64,000 bases of DNA, from assembly GCF_041886205.1 (NCBI RefSeq), contig NZ_CP169030.1, one strand, 5' to 3'. This stretch comes from Escherichia coli. GTDB lineage: Bacteria > Pseudomonadota > Gammaproteobacteria > Enterobacterales > Enterobacteriaceae. A program made the translations under genes and the position numbers. This document shows positions 43,334-62,543 of this stretch, one piece after another (the stretch's first letter is position 1; each line of letters begins with the position of its first letter). A model generated the notes under the pieces. The model did not search any database. It was not told the origin of the DNA and saw nothing but the letters and a program-made list of their open reading frames with translations.

Positions 43334-43625
43334 AAGAACCTCAAGGGTTGGCTGTTTTATTTTATTGTTTTCGGCATTAAGCCCAATTTCTTGAGCGTTA
43401 CGATAAAGCTAGCATGGAAACGATAGGTGCAAGCAAGTTAAGGGTTGCATCGCGCATGTCAATCTAGGCTATACCCTAACTTGATGTCAGGCAGGGCCGC
43501 GCCGCTTCGTCAGAATAGAGTCTGCTTTCCCATTTTTTGACACATGCCCGCGAAGGTTATAGATTTCAGCCTGACAGAAATGGGCTTTGAGGCACAACGG
43601 AACAGAAAGTGCACTTAAGCCGCCT

Positions 43626-43650
43626 TGTCATTTTCAGAAGACGACTGCAC
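43626..43650 (+). repeat. Tn402 IRt (TGTCATTTTCAGAAGACGACTGCAC)
   Basis: Read directly. Confidence 0.85.
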
Positions 43651-43766: not shown

Positions 43767-45446
43767 ATGGCGACGGACACCCCACGGATTCCAGAACAAG
43801 GCGTGGCCACTCTGCCTGATGAGGCTTGGGAGCGTGCGCGCCGTCGTGCGGAGATCATCAGTCCGTTGGCGCAGTCGGAGACGGTCGGGCACGAAGCGGC
43901 CGATATGGCGGCTCAGGCGCTGGGCTTGTCTCGGCGCCAGGTATACGTTCTGATCCGGCGTGCCCGGCAAGGCAGCGGCCTCGTGACGGATCTGGTGCCC
44001 GGCCAGTCCGGTGGAGGTAAAGGTAAGGGGCGCTTGCCGGAACCGGTCGAGCGCGTCATCCACGAGCTACTGCAAAAGCGGTTCCTGACCAAGCAGAAGC
44101 GCAGCCTAGCGGCCTTTCACCGCGAAGTCACTCAGGTGTGCAAGGCTCAAAAACTGCGAGTGCCGGCGCGCAATACCGTGGCCTTACGGATCGCTAGCCT
44201 TGACCCGCGCAAGGTCATCCGCCGGCGGGAAGGCCAGGATGCCGCTCGTGACCTACAAGGTGTGGGCGGCGAGCCTCCTGCCGTGACCGCGCCGCTGGAG
44301 CAGGTGCAGATAGACCATACGGTCATCGACCTGATCGTGGTCGATGACCGCGACCGGCAACCTATTGGCCGCCCGTACCTGACCCTCGCCATCGACGTGT
44401 TCACCCGCTGCGTGCTCGGCATGGTCGTCACGCTGGAAGCGCCGTCTGCCGTTTCGGTTGGCCTGTGCCTCGTGCATGTCGCCTGCGACAAGCGCCCTTG
44501 GCTGGAAGGACTGAACGTGGAAATGGATTGGCAGATGAGCGGCAAGCCCTTGCTGCTCTACCTAGACAACGCGGCCGAGTTCAAGAGCGAGGCCCTGCGC
44601 CGGGGTTGCGAGCAGCATGGCATCCGGCTGGACTATCGCCCGCTGGGACAGCCGCACTATGGCGGCATCGTGGAACGGATCATCGGCACGGCGATGCAGA
44701 TGATTCACGACGAACTGCCGGGAACGACCTTCTCCAACCCTGACCAGCGCGGCGACTACGATTCCGAAAACAAGGCCGCCCTGACGCTGCGCGAGCTAGA
44801 GCGCTGGCTCACATTGGCGGTCGGCACCTACCACGGTTCGGTGCACAACGGCCTGCTCCAACCGCCGGCCGCGCGCTGGGCCGAGGCCGTGGCGCGTGTC
44901 GGCGTACCGGCCGTCGTCACACGCGCTACTTCGTTCCTGGTCGATTTTCTGCCGATCCTCCGGCGCACGCTGACCCGCACCGGCTTTGTCATCGACCACA
45001 TCCACTACTACGCCGATGCGCTCAAGCCGTGGATTGCGCGGCGTGAACGCTGGCCGTCCTTTCTGATCCGGCGCGATCCGCGCGACATCAGCCGTATCTG
45101 GGTCCTGGAACCGGAGGGACAGCATTACCTGGAAATTCCCTACCGTACCTTGTCGCATCCGGCTGTCACCCTCTGGGAACAACGGCAGGCGCTGGCGAAA
45201 CTGCGGCAGCAAGGGCGCGAACAGGTGGATGAGTCGGCGCTGTTCCGCATGATCGGCCAGATGCGTGAGATTGTGACCAGCGCGCAGAAGGCCACACGCA
45301 AGGCGCGGCGTGACGCGGATCGCCGCCAGCACCTCAAGACATCAGCTCGGCCGGACAAGCCCGTTCCGCCGGATACGGATATTGCCGACCCGCAGGCAGA
45401 CAACTTGCCACCCGCCAAACCGTTCGACCAGATTGAGGAGTGGTAG
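43767..45446 (+). CDS. tniA: TniA transposase (DDE)
   Basis: 559 aa starting MATDTPRIPEQG, as recalled for Tn402 TniA. Confidence 0.85.
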   Translation: MATDTPRIPEQGVATLPDEAWERARRRAEIISPLAQSETVGHEAADMAAQALGLSRRQVYVLIRRARQGSGLVTDLVPGQSGGGKGKGRLPEPVERVIHELLQKRFLTKQKRSLAAFHREVTQVCKAQKLRVPARNTVALRIASLDPRKVIRRREGQDAARDLQGVGGEPPAVTAPLEQVQIDHTVIDLIVVDDRDRQPIGRPYLTLAIDVFTRCVLGMVVTLEAPSAVSVGLCLVHVACDKRPWLEGLNVEMDWQMSGKPLLLYLDNAAEFKSEALRRGCEQHGIRLDYRPLGQPHYGGIVERIIGTAMQMIHDELPGTTFSNPDQRGDYDSENKAALTLRELERWLTLAVGTYHGSVHNGLLQPPAARWAEAVARVGVPAVVTRATSFLVDFLPILRRTLTRTGFVIDHIHYYADALKPWIARRERWPSFLIRRDPRDISRIWVLEPEGQHYLEIPYRTLSHPAVTLWEQRQALAKLRQQGREQVDESALFRMIGQMREIVTSAQKATRKARRDADRRQHLKTSARPDKPVPPDTDIADPQADNLPPAKPFDQIEEW

Positions 45447-46357
45447 CCGTGGACGAATATCCCATCATCGACCTGTCCCACCTGCTGCCGGCGGCCCAGG
45501 GCTTGGCCCGTCTTCCGGCGGACGAGCGCATCCAGCGCCTTCGCGCCGACCGCTGGATCGGCTATCCGCGCGCAGTCGAGGCGCTGAACCGGCTGGAAGC
45601 CCTTTATGCGTGGCCAAACAAGCAACGCATGCCCAACCTGCTGCTGGTTGGCCCGACCAACAATGGCAAGTCGATGATCGTCGAGAAGTTCCGCCGCACC
45701 CACCCGGCCAGCTCCGACGCCGACCAGGAGCACATCCCGGTGTTGGTCGTGCAGATGCCGTCCGAGCCGTCCGTGATCCGCTTCTACGTCGCGCTGCTCG
45801 CCGCGATGGGCGCGCCGCTGCGCCCACGCCCACGGTTGCCGGAAATGGAGCAACTGGCTCTGGCACTGCTGCGCAAGGTCGGCGTGCGCATGCTGGTGAT
45901 CGACGAGCTGCACAACGTGCTGGCCGGCAACAGCGTCAACCGCCGGGAATTCCTCAACCTGCTGCGCTTCCTCGGCAACGAACTGCGCATCCCGTTGGTT
46001 GGGGTAGGCACGCGCGACGCCTACCTAGCCATCCGCTCCGATGACCAGTTGGAAAATCGCTTCGAGCCGATGATGCTGCCGGTATGGGAGGCCAACGACG
46101 ATTGCTGCTCACTGCTGGCCAGCTTCGCCGCTTCGCTCCCGCTGCGCCGGCCTTCCCCAATTGCCACGCTGGACATGGCTCGCTACCTGCTCACACGCAG
46201 CGAGGGCACCATAGGGGAACTGGCGCACTTGCTGATGGCGGCGGCCATCGTCGCCGTGGAGAGCGGCGAGGAAGCGATCAACCATCGCACACTCAGCATG
46301 GCCGTTTACACCGGACCCAGCGAGCGGCGGCGGCAATTCGAGCGGGAACTGATGTGA
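45440..46357 (+). CDS. tniB: TniB ATP-binding protein
   Basis: Walker A GPTNNGKS; exact start codon uncertain. Confidence 0.8.
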   Translation: MVAVDEYPIIDLSHLLPAAQGLARLPADERIQRLRADRWIGYPRAVEALNRLEALYAWPNKQRMPNLLLVGPTNNGKSMIVEKFRRTHPASSDADQEHIPVLVVQMPSEPSVIRFYVALLAAMGAPLRPRPRLPEMEQLALALLRKVGVRMLVIDELHNVLAGNSVNRREFLNLLRFLGNELRIPLVGVGTRDAYLAIRSDDQLENRFEPMMLPVWEANDDCCSLLASFAASLPLRRPSPIATLDMARYLLTRSEGTIGELAHLLMAAAIVAVESGEEAINHRTLSMAVYTGPSERRRQFERELM

Positions 46358-47571
46358 AGCCTGCGCCGCGCTGGCCGCTGCATCCCGCCCCGAAAGAAGG
46401 CGAGGCGCTGTCCTCATGGCTCAACCGCGTGGCCCTTTGCTATCACATGGAGGAGCCCGACCTGCTGGAGCACGATCTTGGTCACGGCCAGGTCGATGAC
46501 CTGGACACCGCGCCACCACTCTCGCTGCTGGCGTTGCTTTCCCAGCGGAGCGGCATCGAGCTGGACCGGCTGCGCTGTATGAGTTTCGCCGGATGGGTGC
46601 CTTGGCTACTGGACAGCCTTGATGACCAGATTCCAGACGCCTTGGAAACCTATGCGTTTCAGCTCTCGGTGTTGCTGCCAAGACTCCGCCGTAAGACGCG
46701 ATCCATCACGAGCTGGCGTGCCTGGCTGCCCAGCCAGCCGATAAACCGCGCCTGTCCGCTCTGCCTGAGCGATCCGGAGAACCAAGCCGTACTGCTCGCG
46801 TGGAAGCTGCCCCTGATGCTGAGCTGCCCGCTGCATGGCTGCTGGCTGGAATCCTATTGGGGCGTGCCAGGGCGGTTTCTCGGCTGGGAGAACGCCGACG
46901 CCGAACCGCGCACCGCCAGCGACGCGATTGCGGCGATGGACCAGCGTACCTGGCAGGCACTGACAACCGGTCACGTGGAGCTGCCGCGCCGACGCATCCA
47001 CGCCGGATTGTGGTTTCGACTTCTTCGCACGCTGCTCGATGAGCTGAACACCCCGCTTTCCGCGTGCGGAACCTGCGCGGGGTATCCCCGCCAAGTCTGG
47101 GAAGGCTGCGGGCATCCGCTGCGTGCTGGGCAAAGTCTGTGGCGACCGTATGAAACCCTGAATCCGATAGTACGGTTACAGATGCTGGAGGCGGCGGCAA
47201 CGGCAATCAGCTTGATTGAGGTGAGGGACATCAGCCCGCCAGGCGAGCAGGCAAAGCTATTCTGGTCCGAGCCCCAAACCGGGTTCACCAGTGGCCTGCC
47301 GACGAAAGCGCCGAAGCCCGAGCCCATCAATCACTGGCAGCGTGCAGTCCAGGCCATCGACGAGGCCATCATTGAAGCGCGACACAACCCCGAGACGGCA
47401 CGCTCGCTGTTCGCGTTGGCTTCCTATGGTCGGCGCGATCCCGCTTCCTTGGAACGGTTGCGCGCCACCTTCGTGAAGGAAGGCATCCCGCCGGAATTTC
47501 TGTCACATTACCTGCCTGATGCACCCTTTGCATGTCTTAAACAAAATGACGGGTTAAGTGACAAATTTTGA
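46354..47571 (+). CDS. tniQ: TniQ
   Basis: 405 aa from GTG at 46354; ORF-track extension from 46084 judged spurious. Confidence 0.75.
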   Translation: MKPAPRWPLHPAPKEGEALSSWLNRVALCYHMEEPDLLEHDLGHGQVDDLDTAPPLSLLALLSQRSGIELDRLRCMSFAGWVPWLLDSLDDQIPDALETYAFQLSVLLPRLRRKTRSITSWRAWLPSQPINRACPLCLSDPENQAVLLAWKLPLMLSCPLHGCWLESYWGVPGRFLGWENADAEPRTASDAIAAMDQRTWQALTTGHVELPRRRIHAGLWFRLLRTLLDELNTPLSACGTCAGYPRQVWEGCGHPLRAGQSLWRPYETLNPIVRLQMLEAAATAISLIEVRDISPPGEQAKLFWSEPQTGFTSGLPTKAPKPEPINHWQRAVQAIDEAIIEARHNPETARSLFALASYGRRDPASLERLRATFVKEGIPPEFLSHYLPDAPFACLKQNDGLSDKF

Positions 47572-47617
47572 CGGATAGAGCTTTCCGGCTCACACTGTCA
47601 CATAATCGAACGTATAC

Positions 47618-48256
47618 GTGACGGGTGAAAAGGTGCTGATCGGCTACATGCGGGTATCGAAGGCGGACGGATCCCAGTCCACCAATTTGCAACGCGATGC
47701 GCTCATCGCCGCTGGTGTGAGCCTTGCGCACCTTTACGAGGATCTGGCCTCGGGCAGGCGCGATGATCGCCCAGGGTTGGCTGCTTGCCTGAAGGCGCTT
47801 CGTGAAGGGGACACGCTGATCGTGTGGAAGCTCGATCGGCTTGGCCGTGATCTGCGCCACCTGATCAACACCGTGCACGACCTAACTGCGCGTAGCGTGG
47901 GCCTGAAGGTCCTGACCGGTCACGGTGCGGCGGTCGACACGACGACTGCCGCCGGCAAGCTTGTGTTCGGTATTTTTGCCGCGCTGGCCGAGTTCGAGCG
48001 TGAGTTGATTTCCGAGCGAACAGTCGCTGGACTTATCTCGGCGCGCGCTCGCGGCAGGAAAGGGGGGCGCCCCTTCAAGATGACCGCCGCCAAGCTACGC
48101 CTGGCGATGGCCAGCATGGGGCAACCGGAAACCAAGGTGGGCGATCTCTGCGAAGAACTCGGGATTACCCGGCAGACGCTCTACCGGCACGTGTCGCCCA
48201 AGGGCGAACTGCGGCCAGACGGCGTAAAGCTGCTCTCCCTCGGTTCAGCCGCATAA
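47618..48256 (+). CDS. tniR: TniR (TniC) serine resolvase
   Basis: 212 aa; N-terminal LIGYMRVSKADGSQ serine-recombinase motif. Confidence 0.8.
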   Translation: MTGEKVLIGYMRVSKADGSQSTNLQRDALIAAGVSLAHLYEDLASGRRDDRPGLAACLKALREGDTLIVWKLDRLGRDLRHLINTVHDLTARSVGLKVLTGHGAAVDTTTAAGKLVFGIFAALAEFERELISERTVAGLISARARGRKGGRPFKMTAAKLRLAMASMGQPETKVGDLCEELGITRQTLYRHVSPKGELRPDGVKLLSLGSAA

Positions 48257-48460
48257 ATGGAGGCGACCTGGAACGGGGCGCTGTTCAGTGCGGCAACGAT
48301 CCGATTACCGGTGTCGACCCAGAGCAGCCGTAGAGCTTTTGGGAAAGCTGTCGTTCAACGTTTGACGTGAGGGGCCGCCGTAGCGGCGAAGCCGCGAAGG
48401 GAACCCGCAAGCGCAGCTTGTGGGCGGTCCCTCTCGACGGAATGGTTAGATGCGACCGTT

Positions 48461-48793
48461 TTAGTGAACACTTGCCTTAGATAGCAAGTTGAGCACAGCA
48501 ACGCCGCTGATAATGAAGCCGACACCAACAAATCCCCACATATCTAGTTTTTGACCATGCAAAACCCATGCAATCGCAGTGACCAAGACGATCCCGAGGC
48601 CCGACCAAACTGCGTAGGCGATTCCAACAGGAATCGATTTGAGTGTCAGCGACAGGAAATAAAAAGCAGCAGCGTATCCCGCTACGACGATAAAAGACGG
48701 TACTAACCTAGTAAAGCCCTCACTAGACTTGAGCGCAGAGGTTGCAATGACCTCAAAAATAATGGCCGTAGCCAGAAATAACCAATTTTTCAA
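48461..48793 (-). CDS. qac: SMR-family quaternary-ammonium efflux protein on a gene cassette (qacE-related, full length)
   Basis: 110 aa (TTG start) immediately downstream of attI1; intact SMR C-terminus ...[10 protein letters not shown] rather than the qacEdelta1 tail. Confidence 0.75.
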
Positions 48794-48895
48794 AATATTT
48801 CTCCATGGAGTTCCGCGAAGAAATTTTAGGTTCGATTTAAGAAAAAAAACAGTCTTGTTGCTGGCCGAAATTTGTGCGCACAGCAAAGCATCTAA

Positions 48896-48960
48896 CTTTG
48901 TTTTAGGGCGACTGCCCTGCTGCGTAACATCGTTGCTGCTCCATAACATCAAACATCGAC
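48896..48960 (-). promoter_or_regulatory. attI1 integron recombination site (copy 1, intact)
   Basis: GCCCTAAAACAAAG|TTA junction read on minus strand at 48893-48909. Confidence 0.65.
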
Positions 48961-49031
48961 CCACGGCGTAACGCGCTTGCTGCTTGGATGCCCGAGGCAT
49001 AGACTGTACAAAAAAACAGTCATAACAAGCC

Positions 49032-50045
49032 ATGAAAACCGCCACTGCGCCGTTACCACCGCTGCGTTCGGTCAAGGTTCTGGACCAGTTGCGTGAGCGC
49101 ATACGCTACTTGCATTACAGTTTACGAACCGAACAGGCTTATGTCCACTGGGTTCGTGCCTTCATCCGTTTCCACGGTGTGCGTCACCCGGCAACCTTGG
49201 GCAGCAGCGAAGTCGAGGCATTTCTGTCCTGGCTGGCGAACGAGCGCAAGGTTTCGGTCTCCACGCATCGTCAGGCATTGGCGGCCTTGCTGTTCTTCTA
49301 CGGCAAGGTGCTGTGCACGGATCTGCCCTGGCTTCAGGAGATCGGAAGACCTCGGCCGTCGCGGCGCTTGCCGGTGGTGCTGACCCCGGATGAAGTGGTT
49401 CGCATCCTCGGTTTTCTGGAAGGCGAGCATCGTTTGTTCGCCCAGCTTCTGTATGGAACGGGCATGCGGATCAGTGAGGGTTTGCAACTGCGGGTCAAGG
49501 ATCTGGATTTCGATCACGGCACGATCATCGTGCGGGAGGGCAAGGGCTCCAAGGATCGGGCCTTGATGTTACCCGAGAGCTTGGCACCCAGCCTGCGCGA
49601 GCAGCTGTCGCGTGCACGGGCATGGTGGCTGAAGGACCAGGCCGAGGGCCGCAGCGGCGTTGCGCTTCCCGACGCCCTTGAGCGGAAGTATCCGCGCGCC
49701 GGGCATTCCTGGCCGTGGTTCTGGGTTTTTGCGCAGCACACGCATTCGACCGATCCACGGAGCGGTGTCGTGCGTCGCCATCACATGTATGACCAGACCT
49801 TTCAGCGCGCCTTCAAACGTGCCGTAGAACAAGCAGGCATCACGAAGCCCGCCACACCGCACACCCTCCGCCACTCGTTCGCGACGGCCTTGCTCCGCAG
49901 CGGTTACGACATTCGAACCGTGCAGGATCTGCTCGGCCATTCCGACGTCTCTACGACGATGATTTACACGCATGTGCTGAAAGTTGGCGGTGCCGGAGTG
50001 CGCTCACCGCTTGATGCGCTGCCGCCCCTCACTAGTGAGAGGTAG
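49032..50045 (+). CDS. intI1: class 1 integron integrase IntI1 (copy 1)
   Basis: 337 aa; matches recalled IntI1 sequence. Confidence 0.95.
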
Positions 50046-50222
50046 GGCAGCGCAAGTCAATCCTGGCGGATTCACTACCCCTGCGCGAAGGCCATCGGTG
50101 CCGCATCGAACGGCCGGTTGCGGAAAGTCCTCCCTGCGTCCGCTGATGGCCGGCAGCAGCCCGTCGTTGCCTGATGGATCCAACCCCTCCGCTGCTATAG
50201 TGCAGTCGGCTTCTGACGTTCA

Positions 50223-50247
50223 GTGCAGCCGTCTTCTGAAAACGACA
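50223..50247 (+). repeat. Tn402 IRi (internal copy)
   Basis: GTGCAGCCGTCTTCTGAAAACGACA read directly. Confidence 0.85.
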
Positions 50248-50329
50248 TTTGAACCGGGAACCTTCCCTTTTTGGCTAGGCGTGAAACAATGGTCATTTTC
50301 CCTATACCCAAAATGACCAGGAGGCCCGC

Positions 50330-50407
50330 ATGAAAGTCGCACGCATCTACCTGCGCGTGAGCACGGAGGAACAAGACCTAAGCCGGCAGGATGCCATCGT
50401 GGAGAGC
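50330..50407 (+). pseudogene. 5' fragment of a serine resolvase gene (MKVARIYLRVSTEEQDLSRQDAIVES), truncated by the 88-bp repeat
   Basis: 26 codons with serine-recombinase N-terminal motif, then abrupt junction. Confidence 0.5.
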
Positions 50408-50495
50408 TTAAATAAGACCGTCCCGTAAATTTCAGCCGAATCCGACAAAAAGGCGTGAAGATTTCCTTTAAATAGAGAGACCGAAGGTCATCCTT
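50408..50495 (+). repeat. 88-bp direct repeat flanking the tet(M) segment, copy 1
   Basis: TTAAATAAGACCGTCCCGTAAATTTCAGCCGAATCCGACAAAAAGGCGTGAAGATTTCCTTTAAATAGAGAGACCGAAGGTCATCCTT; identical at 52999-53086. Confidence 0.85.
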
Positions 50496-50968
50496 TTCCT
50501 AAAAAAGGGGGGGGCCATGGTTCCAAGATGTAAAATCGAGGGCTAATTCAGGCTATACTTGAACTATCCTTAATGGAATCTTTAGCCAGCGGTATCAACG
50601 AAGCAAGAAACATCGAAGACTAATTAAAAGAATCCATACATAACGGAAAGAGCCGATAAAATGAGATTGTATTAATCTCATTTTATCGGCTCTGCGTCTT
50701 TGCGTCTGGCTCTGTAATCGCAGTTACTTTGAACTGCTTTATTTCAATTAAATTTTCTTGTCTGCATTTCGGACAATAGAGGGGGAATTTTTTTAATTCA
50801 GTATCTTCCCTTATCTTTAATCGTGTTTTATTTCCACATACAGGACACAATATCCACTTGTAGTTTATAATAACTATCTCCTCCTTTACACTTTAATTCA
50901 AATCTTTATTAAAAAATATTTCATCTTATTTAACAAGAAACCATATTTATATAACAACATAAAATACA

Positions 50969-52888
50969 CTAAGTTATTTTATTGAACATATATCGTACTT
51001 TATCTATCCGACTATTTGGACGACGGGGCTGGCAAACAGGTTCACCGGTAGTAACATGGTACCCTTTTAACTCTGTTAAACAAACACTACGTCCATTTGT
51101 AAAGAAAGTTAAATCACTACGATATTCTTGAATACACCGAGCAGGGATTTCTCCACTAAGAATGACCTCATTATTTTTCAATTGAGTGTCTACGATGTTC
51201 GCACAATATTTAGGAGCATCGTTGTATGCTCGTGAAAGATATTCCTGTGGCGCATAAATTTTAAAACTAAGATATGGCTCTAACAATTCTGTTCCAGCTT
51301 TTTTTAAGACTTGTTCCAATACAATAGGAGCAAGCATCCGAAAATCTGCTGGGGTACTAACAGGGCTATAGTATAAGCCATACTTAAAACAGATTTTACA
51401 GTCCGTCACATTCCAACCATACAATCCTTGTTCACAGCCATAGCGTATCCCTTCCATAACTGCATTTTGAAATGATTGATTTAAGTATCCAAGAGAAACC
51501 GAGCTCTCATACTGCATTCCACTTCCCAACGGAAGCGGTGATACAGATAAACCAATGGAAGCCCAGAAAGGATTTGGCGGCACTTCGATGTGAATGGTAT
51601 ATTCTGCATTTTTTAACGGTCTCTCCATATAAATGACTGTAGGCTCTTTTAGTTCTATCTCCACATGATACTTTTCTTGCAACAGTGCACTAATCACTTC
51701 CATTTGTACTTTCCCTAAGAAAGAAAGTATAATTTCATGTGTCGTAGAATCCACGTAATATCGTAGAAGCGGATCACTATCTGAGATTTCCAAAAGGGCA
51801 TCAAGCAACATTTCTCTCTGTTCAGGTTTACTCGGTTCAACAGTTGTTTGTAGTAGAGGGTGCGGATTTTCAATCTTTTTTCTCTGTGGCAATAGTTTTG
51901 TATCTCCAAGAACACTATTTAACTTCAAAAACTCATTTTGCAAAATAACAATTTCCCCGGAATAAGCCTTATCGATTTTACATAATTCACCATTTATTGA
52001 AGTATACATTTCTGTAATTTTTATTTTTTCCTTTTCCGATATTCTAACCGAATCTCGCAAATGCAGTACGCCACTATAAAGACGTATATATGCAAGACGT
52101 TGTCTTTTTTTTGTATATTCAATTTTGAAAACATTTCCGCAAAGTTCAGACTGACCTCGATGTGTTGATGAATAAAATTTATTCGTAATCACTTCTATAA
52201 GGTTATCAATCCCTATATTGTTTTTTGCACTTCCATGATAAAGAGGGAACAGAGAACAATTCTGAAATCTTATGCTTTCCTCTTGTTCGAGTTCCAATGC
52301 TTCTAATGATTTACCGGACATATATTTCTCTAAAAGGTCATCGTTTCCCTCTATTACCGTATCCCATTGTTCAGATTCGGTAAAGTTCGTCACACACATA
52401 TTAGGATACAGTTCTACCTTCTGTTTGATTACAATTTCGGCAGAAAGTTTCTCTTTAATATCCTGATAAACCGTTGATAAATCAATTCCATTTTGGTCAA
52501 TCTTATTGATAAAAAAGATTGTGGGAATCCCCATTTTCCTAAGTGCATGAAATAATATACGAGTTTGTGCTTGTACGCCATCTTTTGCAGAAATCAGTAG
52601 AATTGCCCCATCTAAAACTGATAATGAACGATATACTTCTGCTAAGAAATCCATATGTCCTGGCGTGTCTATGATGTTCACCTTCGTATTTTCCCACTGA
52701 AAAGAGGTTATTCCTGTCTGAATTGTAATTCCTCTCTGACGTTCTAAAAGCGTATTATCCGTCCTCGTTGTACCTTTGTCCACGCTTCCTAATTCTGTAA
52801 TCGCTCCACTGTTATATAATAAGCTTTCTGTTAAGGTAGTTTTTCCCGCATCAACATGAGCTAAAACTCCAATATTAATAATTTTCAT
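50969..52888 (-). CDS. tet(M): Tet(M) ribosomal-protection tetracycline resistance protein
   Basis: 639 aa from [39 protein letters not shown]...; translational GTPase fold; very close to recalled Tet(M). Confidence 0.95.
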
Positions 52889-52903
52889 GTGATTTTCCTC
52901 CAT

Positions 52904-52990
52904 TCAAAAGCCCAAAAGGGCATAAAAATCCCAGTGATAAATACTCTTATCACTGGGATTTTTATGCATAACCATAGGCATACAAAGCAT
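52904..52990 (-). CDS. tet(M) leader peptide (Tn916 orf12-like attenuation leader)
   Basis: 28 codons MLCMPMVMHKNPSDKSIYHWDFYALLGF directly upstream of tet(M). Confidence 0.7.
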   Translation of the reverse strand: MLCMPMVMHKNPSDKSIYHWDFYALLGF

Positions 52991-52998
52991 ACAGATAT

Positions 52999-53086
52999 TT
53001 AAATAAGACCGTCCCGTAAATTTCAGCCGAATCCGACAAAAAGGCGTGAAGATTTCCTTTAAATAGAGAGACCGAAGGTCATCCTT
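52999..53086 (+). repeat. 88-bp direct repeat flanking the tet(M) segment, copy 2
   Basis: Identical to 50408-50495. Confidence 0.85.
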
Positions 53087-53131
53087 GAAGAAGGAGTCCT
53101 CGGTGAGATTCAGAATGCCGAACACCGTCAC
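53087..53131 (-). pseudogene. sul1: sul1 5' fragment (codons 2-16: VTVFGILNLTEDSFF) fused to truncated attI1
   Basis: Minus-strand GTGACGGTGTTCGGCATTCTGAATCTCACCGAGGACTCCTTCTTC matches recalled sul1 start; joined at ...CAGCAGG|GTGACGG. Confidence 0.7.
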
Positions 53132-53247
53132 CCTGCTGCGTAACATCGTTGCTGCTCCATAACATCAAACATCGACCCACGGCGTAACGCGCTTGCTGCT
53201 TGGATGCCCGAGGCATAGACTGTACAAAAAAACAGTCATAACAAGCC

Positions 53248-54261
53248 ATGAAAACCGCCACTGCGCCGTTACCACCGCTGCGTTCGGTCAAGGTTCTGGA
53301 CCAGTTGCGTGAGCGCATACGCTACTTGCATTACAGCTTACGAACCGAACAGGCTTATGTCCACTGGGTTCGTGCCTTCATCCGTTTCCACGGTGTGCGT
53401 CACCCGGCAACCTTGGGCAGCAGCGAAGTCGAGGCATTTCTGTCCTGGCTGGCGAACGAGCGCAAGGTTTCGGTCTCCACGCATCGTCAGGCATTGGCGG
53501 CCTTGCTGTTCTTCTACGGCAAGGTGCTGTGCACGGATCTGCCCTGGCTTCAGGAGATCGGAAGACCTCGGCCGTCGCGGCGCTTGCCGGTGGTGCTGAC
53601 CCCGGATGAAGTGGTTCGCATCCTCGGTTTTCTGGAAGGCGAGCATCGTTTGTTCGCCCAGCTTCTGTATGGAACGGGCATGCGGATCAGTGAGGGTTTG
53701 CAACTGCGGGTCAAGGATCTGGATTTCGATCACGGCACGATCATCGTGCGGGAGGGCAAGGGCTCCAAGGATCGGGCCTTGATGTTACCCGAGAGCTTGG
53801 CACCCAGCCTGCGCGAGCAGCTGTCGCGTGCACGGGCATGGTGGCTGAAGGACCAGGCCGAGGGCCGCAGCGGCGTTGCGCTTCCCGACGCCCTTGAGCG
53901 GAAGTATCCGCGCGCCGGGCATTCCTGGCCGTGGTTCTGGGTTTTTGCGCAGCACACGCATTCGACCGATCCACGGAGCGGTGTCGTGCGTCGCCATCAC
54001 ATGTATGACCAGACCTTTCAGCGCGCCTTCAAACGTGCCGTAGAACAAGCAGGCATCACGAAGCCCGCCACACCGCACACCCTCCGCCACTCGTTCGCGA
54101 CGGCCTTGCTCCGCAGCGGTTACGACATTCGAACCGTGCAGGATCTGCTCGGCCATTCCGACGTCTCTACGACGATGATTTACACGCATGTGCTGAAAGT
54201 TGGCGGTGCCGGAGTGCGCTCACCGCTTGATGCGCTGCCGCCCCTCACTAGTGAGAGGTAG
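53248..54261 (+). CDS. intI1: class 1 integron integrase IntI1 (copy 2)
   Basis: Identical 337-aa translation to copy 1; at least one silent nucleotide difference (49121 T vs 53337 C). Confidence 0.95.
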
Positions 54262-54438
54262 GGCAGCGCAAGTCAATCCTGGCGGATTCACTACCCCTGC
54301 GCGAAGGCCATCGGTGCCGCATCGAACGGCCGGTTGCGGAAAGTCCTCCCTGCGTCCGCTGATGGCCGGCAGCAGCCCGTCGTTGCCTGATGGATCCAAC
54401 CCCTCCGCTGCTATAGTGCAGTCGGCTTCTGACGTTCA

Positions 54439-54463
54439 GTGCAGCCGTCTTCTGAAAACGACA
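54439..54463 (+). repeat. Tn402 IRi (outer copy) followed by target duplication CGCCT
   Basis: Read directly. Confidence 0.85.
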
Positions 54464-54485
54464 CGCCTTCAACCAAGGAGACATC

Positions 54486-55046
54486 GTGCAGGGGCACCGC
54501 ATCGGCTACGTCCGGGTCAGCAGCTTTGACCAGAACCCGGAACGCCAGCTGGAACAAACCCAGGTGAGCAAGGTGTTCACCGACAAGGCATCGGGCAAGG
54601 ACACCCAGCGCCCCCAGCTCGAAGCGCTGCTGAGCTTCGTCCGCGAAGGCGATACAGTGGTGGTGCACAGCATGGATCGGCTGGCCCGCAACCTCGATGA
54701 CCTGCGTCGCTTGGTACAGAAGCTGACTCAGCGCGGCGTGCGCATCGAGTTCCTGAAGGAGGGCCTGGTGTTCACTGGCGAGGACTCGCCGATGGCCAAC
54801 CTGATGCTGTCGGTGATGGGGGCCTTCGCTGAGTTCGAGCGCGCCCTGATCCGCGAGCGGCAGCGTGAGGGCATCGCCTTGGCCAAGCAGCGTGGCGCGT
54901 ACCGGGGCCGCAAGAAAGCCCTGTCCGATGAGCAGGCTGCTACCCTGCGGCAGCGAGCGACGGCCGGCGAGCCCAAGGCGCAGCTTGCCCGCGAGTTCAA
55001 CATCAGCCGGGAAACCCTCTACCAGTACCTCCGCACGGACGACTGA
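54486..55046 (+). CDS. tnpR: Tn3-family serine resolvase TnpR
   Basis: 186 aa MQGHRIGYVRVSSFDQNPERQ...; IRi lies only 22 bp upstream, i.e. within the expected res region. Confidence 0.9.
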   Translation: MQGHRIGYVRVSSFDQNPERQLEQTQVSKVFTDKASGKDTQRPQLEALLSFVREGDTVVVHSMDRLARNLDDLRRLVQKLTQRGVRIEFLKEGLVFTGEDSPMANLMLSVMGAFAEFERALIRERQREGIALAKQRGAYRGRKKALSDEQAATLRQRATAGEPKAQLAREFNISRETLYQYLRTDD

Positions 55047-55049
55047 CAC

Positions 55050-58016
55050 ATGCCGCGTCGCTTGATCCTCTCGGCCACGGAGCGGGACACCCTGCTTGCG
55101 CTGCCGGAAAGCCAGGATGACCTGATCCGCTACTACACCTTCAACGACTCCGACCTGTCGCTGATCCGCCAGCGACGCGGCGACGCCAACCGCCTCGGCT
55201 TCGCCGTGCAGCTCTGCCTGCTGCGCTACCCCGGTTACGCGCTGGGAACCGACAGCGAGCTGCCCGAGCCGGTCATCCTGTGGGTGGCGAAGCAAGTCCA
55301 GGCCGAGCCGGCGAGCTGGGCAAAGTACGGCGAGCGCGACGTGACCCGTCGCGAGCATGCCCAGGAACTGCGCACCTACCTGCAACTGGCCCCGTTCGGC
55401 CTGTCCGACTTCCGCGCCCTGGTGCGCGAGCTAACCGAGCTGGCCCAGCAGACCGACAAAGGCTTGCTGCTGGCCGGTCAGGCCCTGGAGAGCCTACGGC
55501 AGAAACGACGCATCCTGCCGGCGCTGAGCGTGATTGACCGGGCCTGCTCGGAAGCCATTGCGCGAGCCAATCGGCGGGTCTACCGCGCCCTGGTCGAACC
55601 ACTCACGGACTCGCATCGGGCCAAGCTGGACGAGCTGTTGAAGCTCAAGGCCGGCAGCAGCATCACCTGGTTGACCTGGCTGCGCCAGGCACCGCTGAAA
55701 CCCAACTCTCGGCACATGCTGGAACACATCGAGCGGCTGAAGACATTTCAGTTGGTGGACTTGCCCGAAGGCCTGGGCCGGCACATCCACCAGAACCGCC
55801 TGCTCAAGCTGGCCCGCGAGGGTGGGCAGATGACGCCCAAAGACCTCGGTAAGTTCGAGCCGCAGCGCCGCTACGCGACCCTGGCCGCCGTGGTGCTGGA
55901 GAGCACCGCGACCGTGATCGATGAGCTGGTCGATCTGCATGACCGCATCCTGGTCAAGCTGTTCAGCGGCGCGAAGCACAAGCATCAGCAGCAGTTCCAG
56001 AAGCAGGGCAAGGCGATCAACGACAAGGTGCGCCTGTACTCCAGGATCGGCCAGGCGCTGCTGGAAGCGAAGGAAAGCGGCAGCGACCCCTATGCCGCCA
56101 TCGAGGCGGTGATTCCCTGGGACGAGTTCACCGAGAGCGTCAGCGAGGCCGAGCTGCTGGCCCGGCCGGAAGGCTTCGACCACCTGCACCTGGTCGGCGA
56201 GAACTTCGCCACCCTGCGCCGTTACACGCCGGCCTTGCTGGAGGTGCTGGAACTGCGCGCCGCGCCGGCCGCGCAAGGCGTGCTGGCAGCCGTGCAGACC
56301 CTGCGTGAGATGAACGCCGACAACCTGCGCAAGGTGCCGGCCGATGCACCCACGGCCTTCATCAAGCCGCGCTGGAAGCCGCTGGTGATCACCCCGGAAG
56401 GCCTCGACCGGAAATTCTACGAAATCTGCGCCCTGTCCGAGCTGAAGAACGCCCTGCGCTCCGGCGACATCTGGGTCAAGGGCTCGCGGCAGTTCCGCGA
56501 CTTCGACGACTACCTGCTGCCGGCCGAGAAGTTCGCCGCACTCAAGCGCGAGCAGGCCCTGCCCCTGGCGATCAACCCGAACAGCGACCAGTACCTGGAA
56601 GAGCGTTTGCAGCTGCTGGACGAGCAGTTGGCCACCGTCACCCGCCTGGCCAAGGACAACGAGCTGCCCGATGCCATCCTCACCGAGTCAGGGCTGAAAA
56701 TCACCCCGCTGGATGCGGCGGTGCCGGATCGGGCGCAGGCGCTGATCGACCAAACCAGCCAGTTACTGCCGCGCATCAAGATCACCGAACTGCTGATGGA
56801 CGTGGACGACTGGACGGGCTTCAGCCGCCACTTCACCCACTTGAAGGACGGGGCCGAGGCCAAAGACAGGACGTTGCTGCTGTCCGCAATCCTCGGTGAT
56901 GCGATCAACCTCGGGCTGACCAAGATGGCCGAGTCGAGCCCCGGCCTGACCTACGCCAAGCTGTCCTGGCTGCAAGCCTGGCACATCCGCGACGAAACCT
57001 ATTCGGCGGCCTTGGCCGAGCTGGTCAACCACCAGTATCGCCACGCCTTTGCCGCCCACTGGGGCGACGGCACGACCTCATCCTCCGATGGCCAGCGCTT
57101 CCGCGCGGGTGGCCGGGGCGAGAGCACCGGGCACGTCAACCCGAAGTACGGTAGCGAGCCGGGACGGCTGTTCTATACCCATATCTCCGACCAGTACGCG
57201 CCGTTCAGCACCCGCGTGGTGAATGTCGGCGTCCGCGATTCCACCTATGTGCTCGACGGCCTGCTGTACCACGAGTCCGACCTGCGGATCGAGGAGCACT
57301 ACACCGACACGGCCGGCTTCACCGATCACGTCTTTGCCCTGATGCACCTGCTAGGCTTCCGCTTCGCGCCGCGCATCCGCGACCTCGGCGAAACCAAGCT
57401 GTACGTGCCGCAGGGCGTGCAAGCCTACCCGACGTTGCGCCCGCTGATCGGCGGCACCCTGAACATCAAGCACGTGCGTGCCCACTGGGACGACATCCTG
57501 CGCCTGGCCAGCTCGATCAAGCAGGGCACCGTCACCGCCTCGCTGATGCTGCGCAAGCTCGGCAGCTACCCGCGCCAGAACGGACTGGCCGTGGCCCTGC
57601 GCGAGCTGGGCCGGATCGAGCGCACGCTGTTCATCCTGGACTGGCTGCAAAGTGTTGAACTGCGCCGCCGCGTGCATGCCGGCCTGAACAAAGGTGAGGC
57701 GCGCAACTCGCTGGCCAGGGCGGTGTTCTTCAACCGCCTTGGGGAAATCAGGGATCGGAGCTTCGAGCAGCAGCGCTACCGGGCCAGCGGCCTCAACCTG
57801 GTGACGGCGGCTATCGTGCTGTGGAACACGGTGTACCTGGAACGCGCCACCCAGGGGTTGGTCGAGGCCGGCAAGCCGGTGGACGGCGAGCTGCTGCAAT
57901 TCCTGTCGCCGCTGGGCTGGGAGCACATCAACCTAACCGGCGATTACGTCTGGCGGCAGAGCCGCAGACTGGAAGACGGGAAGTTTCGGCCCTTACGGAT
58001 GCCCGGAAAACCTTAG
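55050..58016 (+). CDS. tnpA: Tn3-family transposase TnpA
   Basis: 988 aa; reads toward the terminal inverted repeat. Confidence 0.9.
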
Positions 58017-58049: not shown

Positions 58050-58567
58050 TTGTTTGTACGATTCGATATCGATACTGCGTAATGGCCGGTACTTCCCTGT
58101 ACCCAGCTTAAGATTATTACGCCAGACATCATCCCCATTAAGATTGATATGCTCCCAGCCCAACGGCGAAAGGTGAGTGCAGTTGGTCATTAATCGGGAG
58201 CTTTTTTCGTTTCAGGGACTCAATGGCTCTTTCTATGTATACCGTGTTCCATAATTTTTCACTCCGTTGAAAACGGAGTACGTGGCAATCGTATCAGTGA
58301 TACAGTTGAGGCAATTGACACGAATACCCTTTCCGGTATTGATGGCATCAGTTGAAGAGCATGTTATTCTCTTGAGCTATTTGTGCCACACAGGCGCGGG
58401 GGGCGTTTTTTACCACGGGGACTTCGGGCATAAAAACAAGGGGCCGCAAACACGGCCCTTAATTCAGATCTAACCGGGTACGCTATCTGTTGCCCTGGAA
58501 AATTGATCTGACAACTCAGTAAAGATCAATACGGTTCTGACGAGCAGCTTACCTGCCTGTTTGCGTT

Positions 58568-59863
58568 TCAGAGCTTATTCTCTGCTGTCTGATAGCCACG
58601 GCTGAGACGAACAAACAGCATTGCCGTTGCGGCGAGTCCGCATAGCGCCGCGCACATGAGCCACCACCCCGGAGAACTCTTATCGCCGGTCAACTGGACC
58701 AATGCGGTGGAGATAGCAGGCGTCAGGCCGCCGAAAATCGCAGTCGCAAGACTAAAGGCCAGCGAAAAACCCACGGTTCGGACATAAACCGGCATCACTT
58801 CGGTCAGGGCCGCCACCATCGCACCGTTATACATGCCAAAAAAGAACGAGAACCAGAGCAGCACCAACGTCATGCGGGTGAAGTCAGGGGCAGCGGTAAG
58901 CCAGTTCATCACCGGCCAGGTGGTGACGAGGGCGAGCAAGGTGATGCCCATCAGCACCGGGCGTCGCCCGATCCGATCAGAGATAGCGCCGCCAATCGGC
59001 AGCCAGATGAAGTTAGAAATCCCTACCAGCATGGTGACAACCAGGCTGTCACGTGCGCTCAGGTTCAACACCGTTCTCCCGTAAGTGGGGGTATAGACAG
59101 TAATAAAATAAAAGGTCGTGGTCGTCATCGCTACCAGCAGGGTACCCGCGGTGATGATGCGCCAGTTTTTAGCAATGGTGGTAAAAATTTCCCGGGTGTC
59201 CGGACGGTGTTTACGTTGTAAAAAGGCTTCAGTTTCCTGTAGCGAACGTCGAAGAACAAAAATCAGCGGAATAATCATGCAGCCAATGAAGAACGGGATT
59301 CGCCAACCCCATTCGGAGATTTCATCGTGTCCCAGCGTGACATTCAGACCGTAGCCGATCAGCGCGGCGACGACAATCGCCACCTGCTGGCTGGCCGATT
59401 GCCAACTGGTGTAAAAGCCTTTATTGCCTGGTGTAGCGATCTCAGAAAGATAAACAGAGACGCCGCCCAGTTCGACGCCAGCAGAAAATCCCTGTAGCAG
59501 ACGCCCCACCAGGACCAGCACGGGAGCCAGCAGGCCGATAGTCTGATAACCCGGCACGAGGGCGATGAGCAGCGTGCCGCAGCCCATAATCGCCAGGGTG
59601 ACCATCAGCCCTTTCCGTCGGCCGATTCTGTCGATATATGCGCCCAACACCACGGCCCCGATAGGGCGCATTAAAAATCCGGAGCCAAAAACGGCAAAAG
59701 TAAGCATTAATGCGGCAAACTCACTTTCGGCAGGAAAAAACGTCTTTGCGATATAAGTGGCGTAAAAACCAAACAGGAAAAAATCGAACTGTTCGAGAAA
59801 ATTACCGCTGGTCACACGCAGTATTGCGCCGAACGTGCCAGCGCGCGATGGTTGTTGAGTCAT
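58568..59863 (-). CDS. tcuC: MFS transporter, tricarballylate/citrate-type (TcuC-like)
   Basis: 431 aa, 12-TM MFS; located downstream of tcuA/tcuB. Confidence 0.65.
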
Positions 59864-59917
59864 TGAAGTTGCTCCACTGTCTTATCAGAATTATGTATAG
59901 AGGTAAGAGTTTGCGGG

Positions 59918-61057
59918 TTAGTCGCCTGAGACCCCCGCCTGTTTTCCACGTCGCTTCTCAATCGCCCATTTGAGTAAAGACGCGCAGCGGTAAAATCCGT
60001 GGGCAAATTTTCCGTATGGAATGGTCAAAAAAAGCGCCATGACCACGCCAAGATGGATGGCAAGCAGGATCCCCATCCATGAGGTGTCTCTTCCCGCCAG
60101 CAAACCTATACCGGTCAGGCTGGTCAGGAGCAGCAGTAAAATAAAACCGCGATCCATCGGTTTCTGTCGCGCGTCGCCATGCAGTGGCGAGCGCTTAAGG
60201 TTTAACCACAGCAGGCCTGCCGGGCCGACAATTAAACCGATTCCTCCGAGCGTGCCAAGCATGACCGGCACGCTGAAGAACGGGTAGGGGGCTTCCCAAC
60301 CGGCGAAGTAGTGGTAACCCGTCGCCACCACGGTCGCGGCGAAACAGAGCATAAAGCCGTAGAAGGTGAAATGGTGGAAACGACGACGCATCAATGTGAA
60401 AGCATCGTCCGCCTCGTTGCAGCCTTTGCCATGACCGCCGTCGAGGTATTTCAGCGTCAGCGCGTTGTGCGACGCTTCGGCAATTTCCGCCGGACGCGGC
60501 CCGACGTGAGAGATCTCGCGCCAGAAGCGGATCACCCCTGCCATTAGTAAACCGATCGCCAGCATGAAAACCGATCCAAACATCCATGCCAGCAGGTTGT
60601 GCGGGAAGATTTGGTAGAAATCACCGGCCAGCGGCGGATGGAGTAGCGATCCCTTCATCCCCATCGCGAGGAGTAAAAAGAGGATCAGACTAAAGACCAG
60701 TGCCAGCGTCACGGTGACGCCAGCCTGGCGATACAGCGCCCCGAAGGCCGCCGGTTGCGCGTAGTGTTGATACGTTTCCAGACGCACTTCCGCCATTGCT
60801 TTCGGCACGTTAATCGCAAACTCATGGGGTGGAGCATACTGGCAGGCGTGCAGGCAGGCGCCGCAGTTATGGCACAGGTTTGCCAGATAGTTAATGTCGG
60901 CTTTGCCAAATTCCAGTCGCTGAGTCATCGCCGGGAACACGGCGCAAAACCCTTCGCAATAGCGACAGGCATTACACACCTGCATCACCCGCTCGACTTC
61001 AGCTTCTGGCTCGGTGAGAATTTTGGCCTCGATGATCAGTTTTTCAAGCTGCTTCAT
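59918..61057 (-). CDS. tcuB: TcuB-like Fe-S membrane protein
   Basis: 379 aa from ATG at 61055-61057 (MKQLEKLI...); two Cys clusters [11 protein letters not shown] and [11 protein letters not shown]; overlaps tcuA stop. Confidence 0.7.
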
Positions 61058-62447
61058 GATGCGCCTCCTTACGTGCTGCCTGCGCGGCTTCTTTACCTGC
61101 GATGCGACCAAACGTGGTGCCGATGGACATGCCGACACCGGCGGTATAGCCCTTGCCCAGTACGTTGCCAGCCATCATCTCACCGGCAACGAACAGGTTA
61201 CGGCTGGGGGTGCCTGCGAAGTGAACCGCAGCGTGTTCATTCACTTTCAGTCCCAGGTAGGTAAAGGTGATCCCCGGTCGCAGGGCATAACCGTAGTAAG
61301 GGGGCGTATTAATAGGCCGCGCCCAGTGCGTTTTCGGTGGCGTCAGGCCCTGAGTCGCGCAGTTATCCAGCTTCGTGTGATCAAACTGACCCGGCTGACA
61401 GGCCTGATTGTAGTGCTCCACGGTATGGGTAAAGCGTTCGGGATCCAGCCCCAACTGGCGGGCCAGTTCACTCAGCGTATTGGCCTGTGCGCCGGGGAAA
61501 ACCGGCGGCATAAAGTGACCGATCGCTTTGCTGTCGATAATGGAGTAGCCAATCTGCCCCGGCTGTTGGGCAACCAGACGCCCCCAGATGGCATAGCGTT
61601 TCGGCCAGAAATCTTCGCCTTCATCGTAAAAGCGCTCCGCGTCCCGGTTGACTACCACACCCAGTGAGACGCAATCCACGCGGGTACAAATGCCGCCGTC
61701 GTACAACGGAGCCCGGGCATCAATCGCCACACAGTGGGACTGAGACGGATCGCCGATAATGTCAGCACCGGCATCGATCATAAACTTGAGCAAGACGCCC
61801 TGATTAAAGCGGGTGCCGCGAATGAGGAAGTTATCGGCTGGCCATTCGCCACGAGCGTTCTCTCCCCAGGCGTCGCGCAGCCATTCGCGGTTGGATTCAA
61901 ATCCACCGGCGGCGAGTACGCAGGCTTTCGCCTCAATGCGCTCGTGGCCTGCCAGGGCTGCGATGAATTCGCCGTTGTGCAATTCAAGTGCCTGTACCGG
62001 CGTGTTGTAGCGAATCTGTACCCCCAGCTTTTCTGCGCTGCGGTAATAGGCGTTCACGAGGGCTTTACCGCCGCCCATGAAGAAGGCATTGGTACGCGCC
62101 ACGTGCAGCGCGCCAGAGAGCGGAGGCTGAAAATTAACGCCGTGATGACGCATCCAGTCGCGACACTGGGAAGAGGTCCGGATCACCAGTCGCGCCAACG
62201 CTTCATTGGTATTGCCTTCGGTGACACGCCAGAGATCCTGCCAGAACTCCTCTTCGGGATAACTCTCGACCAGCACATCCTGTGGCGCATCGTGCATACA
62301 GCGTAAATTGCGCGTGTGTTGGGAATTCCCGCCGCGCCATTCCCGGGGCGCAGCCTCTAACAGCAGCACGGAAGCTCCTGCCTCACGGGCGGTTAAGGCG
62401 GCACATAACGCGGCATTACCACCGCCAATCACCAGTACATCAACCAT
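61044..62447 (-). CDS. tcuA: TcuA-like FAD-dependent tricarballylate dehydrogenase
   Basis: 467 aa; N-terminal [14 protein letters not shown] dinucleotide-binding motif. Confidence 0.7.
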
Positions 62448-62543
62448 CGTCTACTCCATTACCATTTAACTATTTGTTAAATTTGTAATTGAAATGTATA
62501 CGTATGATTGTATGGGCGCTATAACGAATAGCTAAAGATGGGT

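Follow-up and report, generated by a model that had tools for sequence, protein, structure and literature searches.

The window analysed here is a 64,000-nt stretch of an Escherichia coli plasmid contig (NZ_CP169030.1) in which tet(M), a tetracycline-resistance gene of the ribosomal-protection type, lies between two copies of the 5′ end of a class 1 integron. The copies are direct repeats of 1333 bp (48915-50247 and 53131-54463, + strand), each containing part of attI1, intI1 and the inverted repeat IRi (50223-50247 in copy 1 and 54439-54463 in copy 2). Both have the characters of a class 1 integron 5′-conserved segment (5′-CS): each encodes a full-length IntI1 of 337 aa (49032-50045 and 53248-54261), the two proteins being identical, and each carries, by sequence, the promoter Pc inside intI1. 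They differ at a single base, T at 49121 and C at 53337. The first repeat base (48915/53131) is ambiguous and may equally be the G of sul1 codon 2; the length of 1332 bp from 48916, given in an earlier reading of this DNA from its letters (the sequence-only reading), is equally valid.

Beside IRi of copy 1 lies an IncP-1-like par region (50248-50407, + strand) that ends in a 26-codon stub of the parA resolvase gene (50330-50407). The stub abuts a discrete unit of 153 bp (50408-50560, + strand), which is followed by a Tn916-family fragment containing tet(M) (50561-52998, − strand), by a second copy of the unit truncated to positions 1-88 (52999-53086, + strand) and by a sul1 stub (53087-53131, − strand) that has base 53131 in common with attI1. 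The first 88 nt of the unit form an exact repeat (50408-50495 and 52999-53086). The sul1 stub reads VTVFGILNLTEDSFF, corresponding to codons 2-16, and thousands of plasmids have sul1 sequence that is 100% identical to positions 53087-53130. Copy 1 retains a complete attI1 (48871-48942, − strand) with its GTTRRRY crossover site (core site 48890-48896), and the Rfam attI model (RF02912) scored 72 bits on it; copy 2 scored 29 bits and has lost its final 19 nt and with them the GTTAGAT core site, the crossover site of a functional attI1. The sequence-only reading had correctly recognised the directly oriented intI1 copies, the 88-bp repeat, the resolvase stub, the 45-nt sul1 stub and the position of tet(M) and its leader between the repeats. 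It had also seen that attI1 of copy 2 was truncated and fused to sul1; its figure of 20 bp becomes 19 nt, with base 53131 ambiguous.

Near-identical 1.3-kb copies are a classic source of misassembly, and a single intI1 could have been wrongly doubled during repeat resolution. For this structure the probability of such an error is negligible. The 8 kb from 48000 to 56000 were present at 100% identity in four independent complete plasmids, and all five novel junctions were identical across the seven plasmid loci examined. Both copies of the 88-bp repeat were held by 18 PLSDB plasmids from E. coli and Salmonella, whose sources were cattle, pigs, veal, pork and humans and whose replicons included IncF, IncHI2 and IncC. 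Identical junctions in independently sequenced complete plasmids of four replicon types (the three just named and an IncX-related context), the occurrence of the structure in several countries and in both species, and the differences between the copies in Pc allele and in both flanks all argue against an artefact. The diagnostic stretch from parA through the repeat into orf9 was present in 6 of 5426 complete E. coli genomes. The tet(M)–integron structure is thus present in public plasmids already, though undescribed: a literature search that had subscription journals outside its coverage, and in which "tet(M)" was not searchable as such, returned no description of the structure or of the ISCR element discussed below.

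The Tn916-family fragment (2438 bp) aligned without gaps, at 98.9% identity, with a Tn916-like element of Enterococcus faecalis pKUB3007-3, the alignment extending one base into the repeat (2439 bp). It begins within orf9, keeping the final 63 nt of this gene (50561-50623, + strand), and extends through orf6 (50683-50850) and the tet(M) open reading frame (ORF; 50969-52903) to the leader peptide (52904-52990) with its attenuator, and ends 8 nt upstream of the leader ATG. Lacking int/xis, the conjugation module and the element ends, it is an internal fragment and not a Tn916-family element. Native tet(M) transcription starts about 170 nt upstream of the leader ATG (bioRxiv 10.1101/2021.03.24.436905). 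Because the fragment stops 8 nt upstream of this ATG, it lacks the native promoter and the greater part of the 5′ leader. The Rfam model of the tet(M) leader small RNA (sRNA) matched weakly, with 36 bits against a threshold of 123. Pc of copy 2 (53335-53363, − strand) faces tet(M) in the correct orientation, about 430 nt upstream of its start codon, and the attenuator hairpin is kept. Having lost its own promoter, tet(M) is placed like a cassette downstream of Pc. This arrangement suggests that its transcripts most likely begin at Pc of copy 2, cross the sul1 stub and the 88-nt remnant and are still controlled by the attenuator.

The integron ends and the mobile segment

The sole mismatch between the repeats lies in the −10 box of Pc: copy 1 carries PcH1 (TGGACA-17 nt-TAAACT; 49119-49147, − strand) and copy 2 carries PcW (TGGACA-17 nt-TAAGCT). 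The substitution is silent, as the sequence-only reading had stated, with identical IntI1 proteins, but that reading had missed that it is a known Pc −10 polymorphism.

The two IRi copies also differ in their surroundings. A 5-bp target duplication, CGCCT, is located to the left of the inverted repeat IRt (43621-43625) and again directly after IRi of copy 2 (54464-54468). Between these sites lie IRt itself (43626-43650, + strand; exact match), the tniA-tniB-tniQ-tniR transposition module (43767-48256, + strand; coordinates converted from the annotation of the identical AP024116 stretch), the qacG2 cassette (48464-48793, − strand; AP024116 annotation), which is the sole cassette of the integron, and IRi at 54439-54463, all as expected of the Tn402 family. 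The resident element is a complete Tn402-like integron (IRt, tniABQR, qacG2, intI1 and IRi) inserted in the res region of a Tn1721-type transposon (54464-58016, + strand; tnpR, 54486-55046; tnpA, 55050-58016). A counterpart that lacks the tet(M) module was found in pESBL3301-IncX1; its flanks are identical, and it has one intI1, with PcW. The extra IRi (50223-50247) is flanked differently. Since the CGCCT duplication pairs IRt with IRi of copy 2 only, IRi of copy 1, which adjoins an IncP-1-like parA flank, is foreign to the resident element. The parA stub matches the N-terminus of ParA of the IncP-1 plasmid pAKD16 in 25 of 26 residues, and IncP-type par/res regions are classic targets of the Tn402-family "res hunters." In pAKD16 itself (locus L030, 900-1025), a Tn402-type inverted repeat is located upstream of parA at the same position as IRi of copy 1 in the window; we read it as an independent res-hunter insertion at the same site.

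Across the loci examined, the stretch from IRi of copy 1 through the parA flank, the repeat, tet(M), the truncated repeat and the sul1 stub to the truncated attI1 was invariant. The cassette arrays to the left of copy 1 varied (qacG2 with tni; aadA12-lnu(F); dfrA1-aadA1-qacL; aadB-aadA2-cmlA6-aadA15; truncated intI1/blaTEM), and the right flank of IRi copy 2 took three different forms. The Pc alleles were shuffled as well: in five loci the base in copy 2 was T, the PcH1 allele; C was confined to the window type, which alone combines PcH1 in copy 1 with PcW in copy 2. In two IncHI2 plasmids (loci L021, 10577-11080, and L022), IRi of copy 2 is followed by ATGGAGGTGG... and not directly by the Tn1721-type res/tnpR flank; this stretch is about 500 bp long in L021, after which Tn1721-type sequence resumes, and in L022 the next transposase is annotated as TnAs3-type.

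These patterns support the view that two class 1 integron 5′ ends of different origin were joined by recombination. The segment that moved between integrons appears to be the 4216-bp repeat period, namely the invariant segment plus one 5′-CS, and not the unit 50408-53086 whose excision the sequence-only reading had proposed. Such a segment would loop out and re-enter any class 1 integron through homologous recombination in the 1.3-kb 5′-CS, duplicating intI1. In the window, it would have entered the Tn402-like qacG2 integron sitting in Tn1721. Because the module-free relative carries PcW, we infer a crossover in the first 206 bp of the repeat (48915-49121), so that copy 1 would have ended up with PcH1 and copy 2 would have kept the resident PcW. 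Judged from these comparisons, this recombination stage appears well supported; the varied arrays and flanks and the swapped Pc alleles call for later recombination within the 5′-CS whatever the first assembly was.

The 153-bp unit and its parent element, ISCRx

Outside tet(M) plasmids, the 153-bp unit was found at 99-100% identity, and similarity ended sharply at 50408 and 50560 every time. These sites included an Acinetobacter baumannii plasmid, beside tet(X), estT and a truncated rteC; contigs of metagenome-assembled genomes (MAGs) labelled Flavobacterium, Saprospiraceae and Oligoflexia; and further metagenome contigs. The unit did not turn up in a scan of viral contigs. In 13 loci, the unit formed the 3′ end (last 153 bp) of an identical, undescribed 1790-bp element of the IS91/ISCR family, for which we use the name ISCRx. 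The element encodes a 462-aa Y2-HUH transposase whose ORF adjoins the unit in locus L007 and 12 other loci. Its Pfam domains, scored on near-identical proteins, were Zn_Tnp_IS91 (PF14319) and Y2_Tnp (PF04986). The protein scored 116 bits on the NCBIfam IS91 model, below the cut-off of 125, and 302 bits, as a partial match, on the model for ISCR clade Ia; it is 38% identical over its full length to the transposases of ISCR1 and ISCR2 and keeps the VHFH and RYIxR motifs. The unit end ...GGCTATACTT sits 197 bp past the transposase stop codon and aligns with the oriIS end of ISCR2, ...TTCCTATACG, the terminus being GGCTATAC versus CCTATAC in ISCR2. ISCRx therefore shows an oriIS downstream of the transposase gene with a CTATAC-type terminus, together with a Y2 HUH transposase that has an N-terminal zinc-binding domain. 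The sequence-only reading had reckoned that its duplication story would fall if the 88-bp repeat proved to be part of a known IS terminus that explained the structure trivially; the repeat does belong to an oriIS end, but the element is undescribed and the explanation is not trivial.

The exact ISCRx protein, WP_374000028.1, is annotated merely as "transposase" in a complete Bdellovibrio bacteriovorus genome and is indexed in 350 blocks of the public assembly collection; relatives occur in Bacteriovorax, Halobacteriovorax and Oligoflexia. Intact ISCRx was found only in Bdellovibrio and wastewater assemblies. The intact transposase was absent from PLSDB plasmids, where the best match was less than 60% identical, and the window region contains no IS91-family ORF and no ISCR1. 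The units in PLSDB plasmids are thus fossils, and their onward spread is a matter of recombination and of host transposons and plasmids.

Among relatives with 70-87% protein identity, the best conserved noncoding block, GCCTAATT(T/C)(C/T)GGTCTTA..TAAG, straddles the left boundary of the unit, and a related motif, (G)CTAATTnnnn(C)CTAT(A/C)C, is located at their terminus. Two related motifs are placed 153 bp apart, GCCTAATTTCGGTC directly before TTAAAT and GGCTAATTCAGGCTATACTT at the end (L007, 2598-2625 and 2749-2768; relatives in L013, L015 and L017). The first lies in a small palindrome, TCTTAnnTAAGA, which is conserved in relatives. The two motifs may be putative transposase recognition sites, and we read the unit ends as two specific sites, 153 bp apart, that the transposase would use. 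A structured RNA or attC-like hairpin in the unit was considered and dropped, since DNA and RNA folds were unstable (z-scores of +1.1 and +1.8); an Rfam scan gave matches limited to attI and the weak tet(M)-leader sRNA.

ISCRx stands at the head of resistance-gene arrays with the order ISCR–cargo–unit–cargo–unit (loci L031-L040, for example L034, 2797-6801; L033 is B. bacteriovorus CP168968.1, 1961817-1969205). The cargo genes resemble aadA, aph/mph, lnu, major facilitator superfamily (MFS) efflux, dfr, GNAT, sul, OXA and tet(X) genes, and the same modules are stacked in different orders in different assemblies. A solo unit lay 1.3-2.1 kb downstream of intact ISCRx in 5 of 10 loci and upstream in none of the 10. 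Four junctions between the unit and its right flank recurred: each directly followed intact ISCRx in one locus and a solo unit in a second one. One contig had the order ISCR, MFS-CPT, unit, APH-rep, unit, flank. Solo units had their left boundary at position 1 in 12 different contexts and at positions 2 and 6 in two more. Some contigs start and end inside the unit. Such contigs and the unit–cargo–unit arrays are indirect signs that ISCRx may move by rolling-circle transposition with circular intermediates. The junction of tet(X) and truncated rteC with the unit occurs at the same rteC position in pABF9692 (L002, 4606-7152), where estT lies between tet(X) and rteC, and in a Flavobacterium MAG contig (L004), and an intact ISCRx copy lies upstream of the same fabF-tet(X) block in L003; ISCRx thus appears to have mobilised tet(X) too. 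A simple insertion of the solo pABF9692 unit into rteC was considered; the second rteC copy is cut short too soon to allow the comparison, and the sequence to the right of the unit does not read as rteC.

What the unit does in these arrays can be read in two ways, each of which we regard as tentative. One possibility is that the 153-bp sequence is the working boundary of an unrecognised gene-capture system. Its HUH transposase would act immediately after GCCTAATTTCGGTC and immediately after GGCTAATTCAGGCTATACTT and would stack unit-plus-cargo modules downstream, in an integron-like manner via a rolling circle. This system would reside in predatory Bdellovibrionota and other wastewater bacteria and would have exported tet(M), Gram-positive by origin, to integrons of Enterobacteriaceae and tet(X), which stems from Bacteroidota, to Acinetobacter. 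Alternatively, the unit might be a nonautonomous mini-element resembling a miniature inverted-repeat transposable element. It would insert itself and mobilise DNA on its left by IS91-type one-ended rolling-circle transposition from the oriIS terminus, so that junctions of cargo with unit position 1 would be primary insertions and junctions of unit position 153 with cargo would be circle closures. This leftward direction fits the IS91 paradigm, the tet(X)-rteC junction is common to two loci in one of which the DNA to the right of the unit differs, and in the window the unit is followed at once by GAAC, which is complementary to GTTC, the target/termination tetranucleotide of IS91. Against it, other right flanks have no conserved tetranucleotide, solo units occurred only downstream of intact copies, no solo unit was seen interrupting otherwise contiguous DNA and no pair of empty and filled sites was found; self-insertion of the unit seems to us possible but doubtful.

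First assembly of the tet(M) block

We consider it likely, though well short of certain, that the block is a two-stage mosaic formed by ISCRx capture and then by 5′-CS recombination. In the first stage, which we infer to have taken place in an environmental host with the transposase, ISCRx would have come to adjoin a Tn916-type element. Acting at two sites, namely the oriIS terminus (immediately after ...GGCTATACTT, also given as CTATACTT) and the point between GGTC and TTAAAT 153 bp further in, the transposase would have yielded a 2591-bp module composed of the 153-bp unit and 2438 bp of Tn916 (orf9 end, orf6, tet(M) and leader). A slightly over-length copy (unit, cargo and unit positions 1-88) would then have been joined to sul1 codon 16, with a class 1 integron in the par/res region of an IncP-1-like plasmid as the recipient. 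A second event at unit position 1 would have joined parA codon 26 to the unit, and a deletion would have fused attI1 to sul1 codon 2. The outcome would be equivalent to a 4216-bp circle of 5′-CS, IRi, parA flank, unit, tet(M), truncated unit, sul1 stub and truncated attI1. The stretch from unit positions 1-153 through the Tn916 fragment to unit positions 1-88 corresponds to 1.03 copies of the 2591-bp period, a structure that would be expected from rolling-circle copying of a unit-plus-cargo circle. The join of parA codon 26 to unit position 1 is of the same type as the other transposase-type junctions, and either rolling-circle direction can yield the same 4216-bp circle.

Several points weigh against this two-stage history. 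No ancestor was found, and neither was an ISCRx copy beside an intact Tn916, a free 2591-bp or 4216-bp circle, or a plasmid with parA continuing past the unit. The joins of unit position 88 with sul1 and of sul1 with attI1, with 0-1 nt of homology, look like ordinary illegitimate deletions and have no tie to the transposase, and two neighbouring integrons with the intervening DNA deleted would provide an alternative start. The direction of capture is undecidable from periodic arrays, in which units flank every cargo on both sides and both parsings fit, and the textbook IS91 model puts the cargo on the terIS side. As for expression, a scan of 52800-53450 revealed no consensus promoter, although it was too strict, leaving Pc itself unflagged.

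The deletion-like joins are what an origin in situ would predict. Two class 1 integrons in direct orientation on one plasmid would have received the tet(M) segment between them, and adjacent deletions would have taken out the stretch that began at parA codon 27 and ended at sul1 codon 17, as well as the DNA between the start of sul1 and attI1, so that the structure would have formed with no circle and no 5′-CS recombination. The different Pc alleles and IRi flanks of the two 5′-CS copies are also as expected from two integrons. Nevertheless, the target duplication pairs IRt with IRi of copy 2, a module-free counterpart exists, and the invariant segment occurs with at least four cassette arrays, three flanks of IRi copy 2 and swapped Pc alleles. 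We therefore regard an in-situ origin as rather improbable; it may describe the first assembly at most and not the arrival of the block on this plasmid. Far less probable still, indeed barely credible, is capture of tet(M) by IntI1 as a gene cassette or its delivery by an IS26-type translocatable unit. tet(M) does stand in cassette orientation downstream of attI1 and Pc, and IS26-bounded tet(M) units are common in E. coli. However, neither GTTRRRY nor RYYYAAC occurs less than 16 nt from a novel junction, no attC is present, attI1 of copy 2 lacks the crossover point, the IS26 terminal inverted repeat is absent from the whole window, and the known E. coli units hold truncated orf13, leader and tet(M) and not a fragment from orf9 to the leader. 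By its features, the tet(M) block is neither a gene cassette nor an IS26 composite.

The two-stage mosaic retains much of what the sequence-only reading had suggested, namely recombination between two integrons and capture of a Gram-positive-derived unit: the different Pc variants, the IRi flanks, the CGCCT duplication and the contiguous Tn916-family DNA all agree with it. That reading had overlooked the ISCR-type end, the Pc polymorphism, the 4216-bp moving segment and the loss of the tet(M) promoter. A further variant of the block was found in pDAM_4 (E. coli, seawater, Lebanon; L026, 5891-8000), where the parA flank and copy 1 have given way to the end of a Tn3-family transposon. The passenger of this transposon is an ABC-F gene (ribosomal-protection-like, below the family cut-off), and the transposon is seen in native form in L027. 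In pDAM_4 the unit starts at position 3; a transposase-made junction was rejected here, as the Tn3-family inverted repeat abuts the unit, marking a secondary insertion.

Outside the integron, similarity of the window to AP024116 stops at 58050. Directly after the Tn1721-type tnpA, where AP024116 carries tetR(A)-tet(A), positions 58568-63470 contain four ORFs that by translation resemble tricarballylate-utilisation genes (an MFS transporter, TcuB-like and TcuA-like proteins and a LysR regulator). The backbone at 1-37630 also differs from AP024116 and resembles those of the bovine E. coli plasmids CP127254 and CP074368, which bear an autotransporter gene and several IS elements.

Relation to known systems and significance

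The structure represents a variation on the complex class 1 integron. In complex class 1 integrons of the In6/In7 type (5′-CS, cassettes, 3′-conserved segment (3′-CS), ISCR1, resistance gene and a second 3′-CS), an ISCR likewise imports a noncassette resistance gene, the block is bracketed by a duplicated conserved segment, and its spread to other integrons is explained by a circular form that recombines with that segment. By contrast, the 5′-CS (attI1-intI1-IRi) is duplicated here and the 3′-CS in that type; the ISCR is a different one, with about 38% transposase identity to ISCR1 and represented by its 153-bp end only; and a Gram-positive Tn916 cargo lies downstream of Pc. As no ISCR1 (orf513) is present and 45 nt of sul1 are left, the structure is not a complex class 1 integron of the ISCR1 type.

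ISCR2 modules (ISCR2 with tet(X4), floR or sul2) resemble those of ISCRx in having genes bracketed by complete or truncated oriIS ends, a CTATAC-type terminus and a link to tet(X). ISCR2 remnants, as far as is known, are truncated at varied positions, whereas the left boundary of ISCRx remnants is constant (position 1 or within 6 nt) in about 14 contexts and falls on the best conserved noncoding motif of the family. With IS91 and its one-ended transposition, ISCRx has in common a zinc-binding and Y2 HUH transposase, the lack of cut-and-paste terminal inverted repeats and no visible target duplication; it differs in having no conserved GTTC/CTTG target at oriIS, a second site 153 bp inside the end and cargo stacked downstream of the transposase gene. 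Tn6539, Tn7124 and Tn6942, which are IS26-bounded tet(M) transposons of E. coli, likewise carry a Tn916-like tet(M) with leader on conjugative plasmids in livestock-associated Enterobacteriaceae. Here, however, the fragment spans the orf9 end to the leader without truncated orf13, IS26 is lacking, and 5′-CS copies serve as the flanking repeats. Integron cassette arrays offer an analogy only: the Bdellovibrio and wastewater modules have the same short boundary, vary in order and lie beside a recombinase gene, but their boundary is an ISCR end and not attC, the enzyme is a HUH transposase and not a tyrosine recombinase, and attI, attC and core sites are lacking.

The departures from the known type are thus the duplicated 5′-CS, an undescribed ISCR from Bdellovibrionota and wastewater, a Gram-positive cargo and the placement of the gene under Pc. 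Together, they explain a route by which tet(M) of a Gram-positive conjugative transposon reached class 1 integrons of livestock-associated E. coli and Salmonella. The tet(M) block can enter any class 1 integron by simple homologous recombination, and its expression is probably driven from the integron promoter. The ISCRx arrays are a more novel lead than the plasmid structure itself. The vehicle is an undescribed ISCR element that is abundant in public assemblies, amid aadA-, aph-, lnu-, dfr-, sul-, OXA- and tet(X)-type genes. These results suggest that resistance genes mix in wastewater predators, Bdellovibrio among them, and the 153-bp unit offers a marker for tracking this route.

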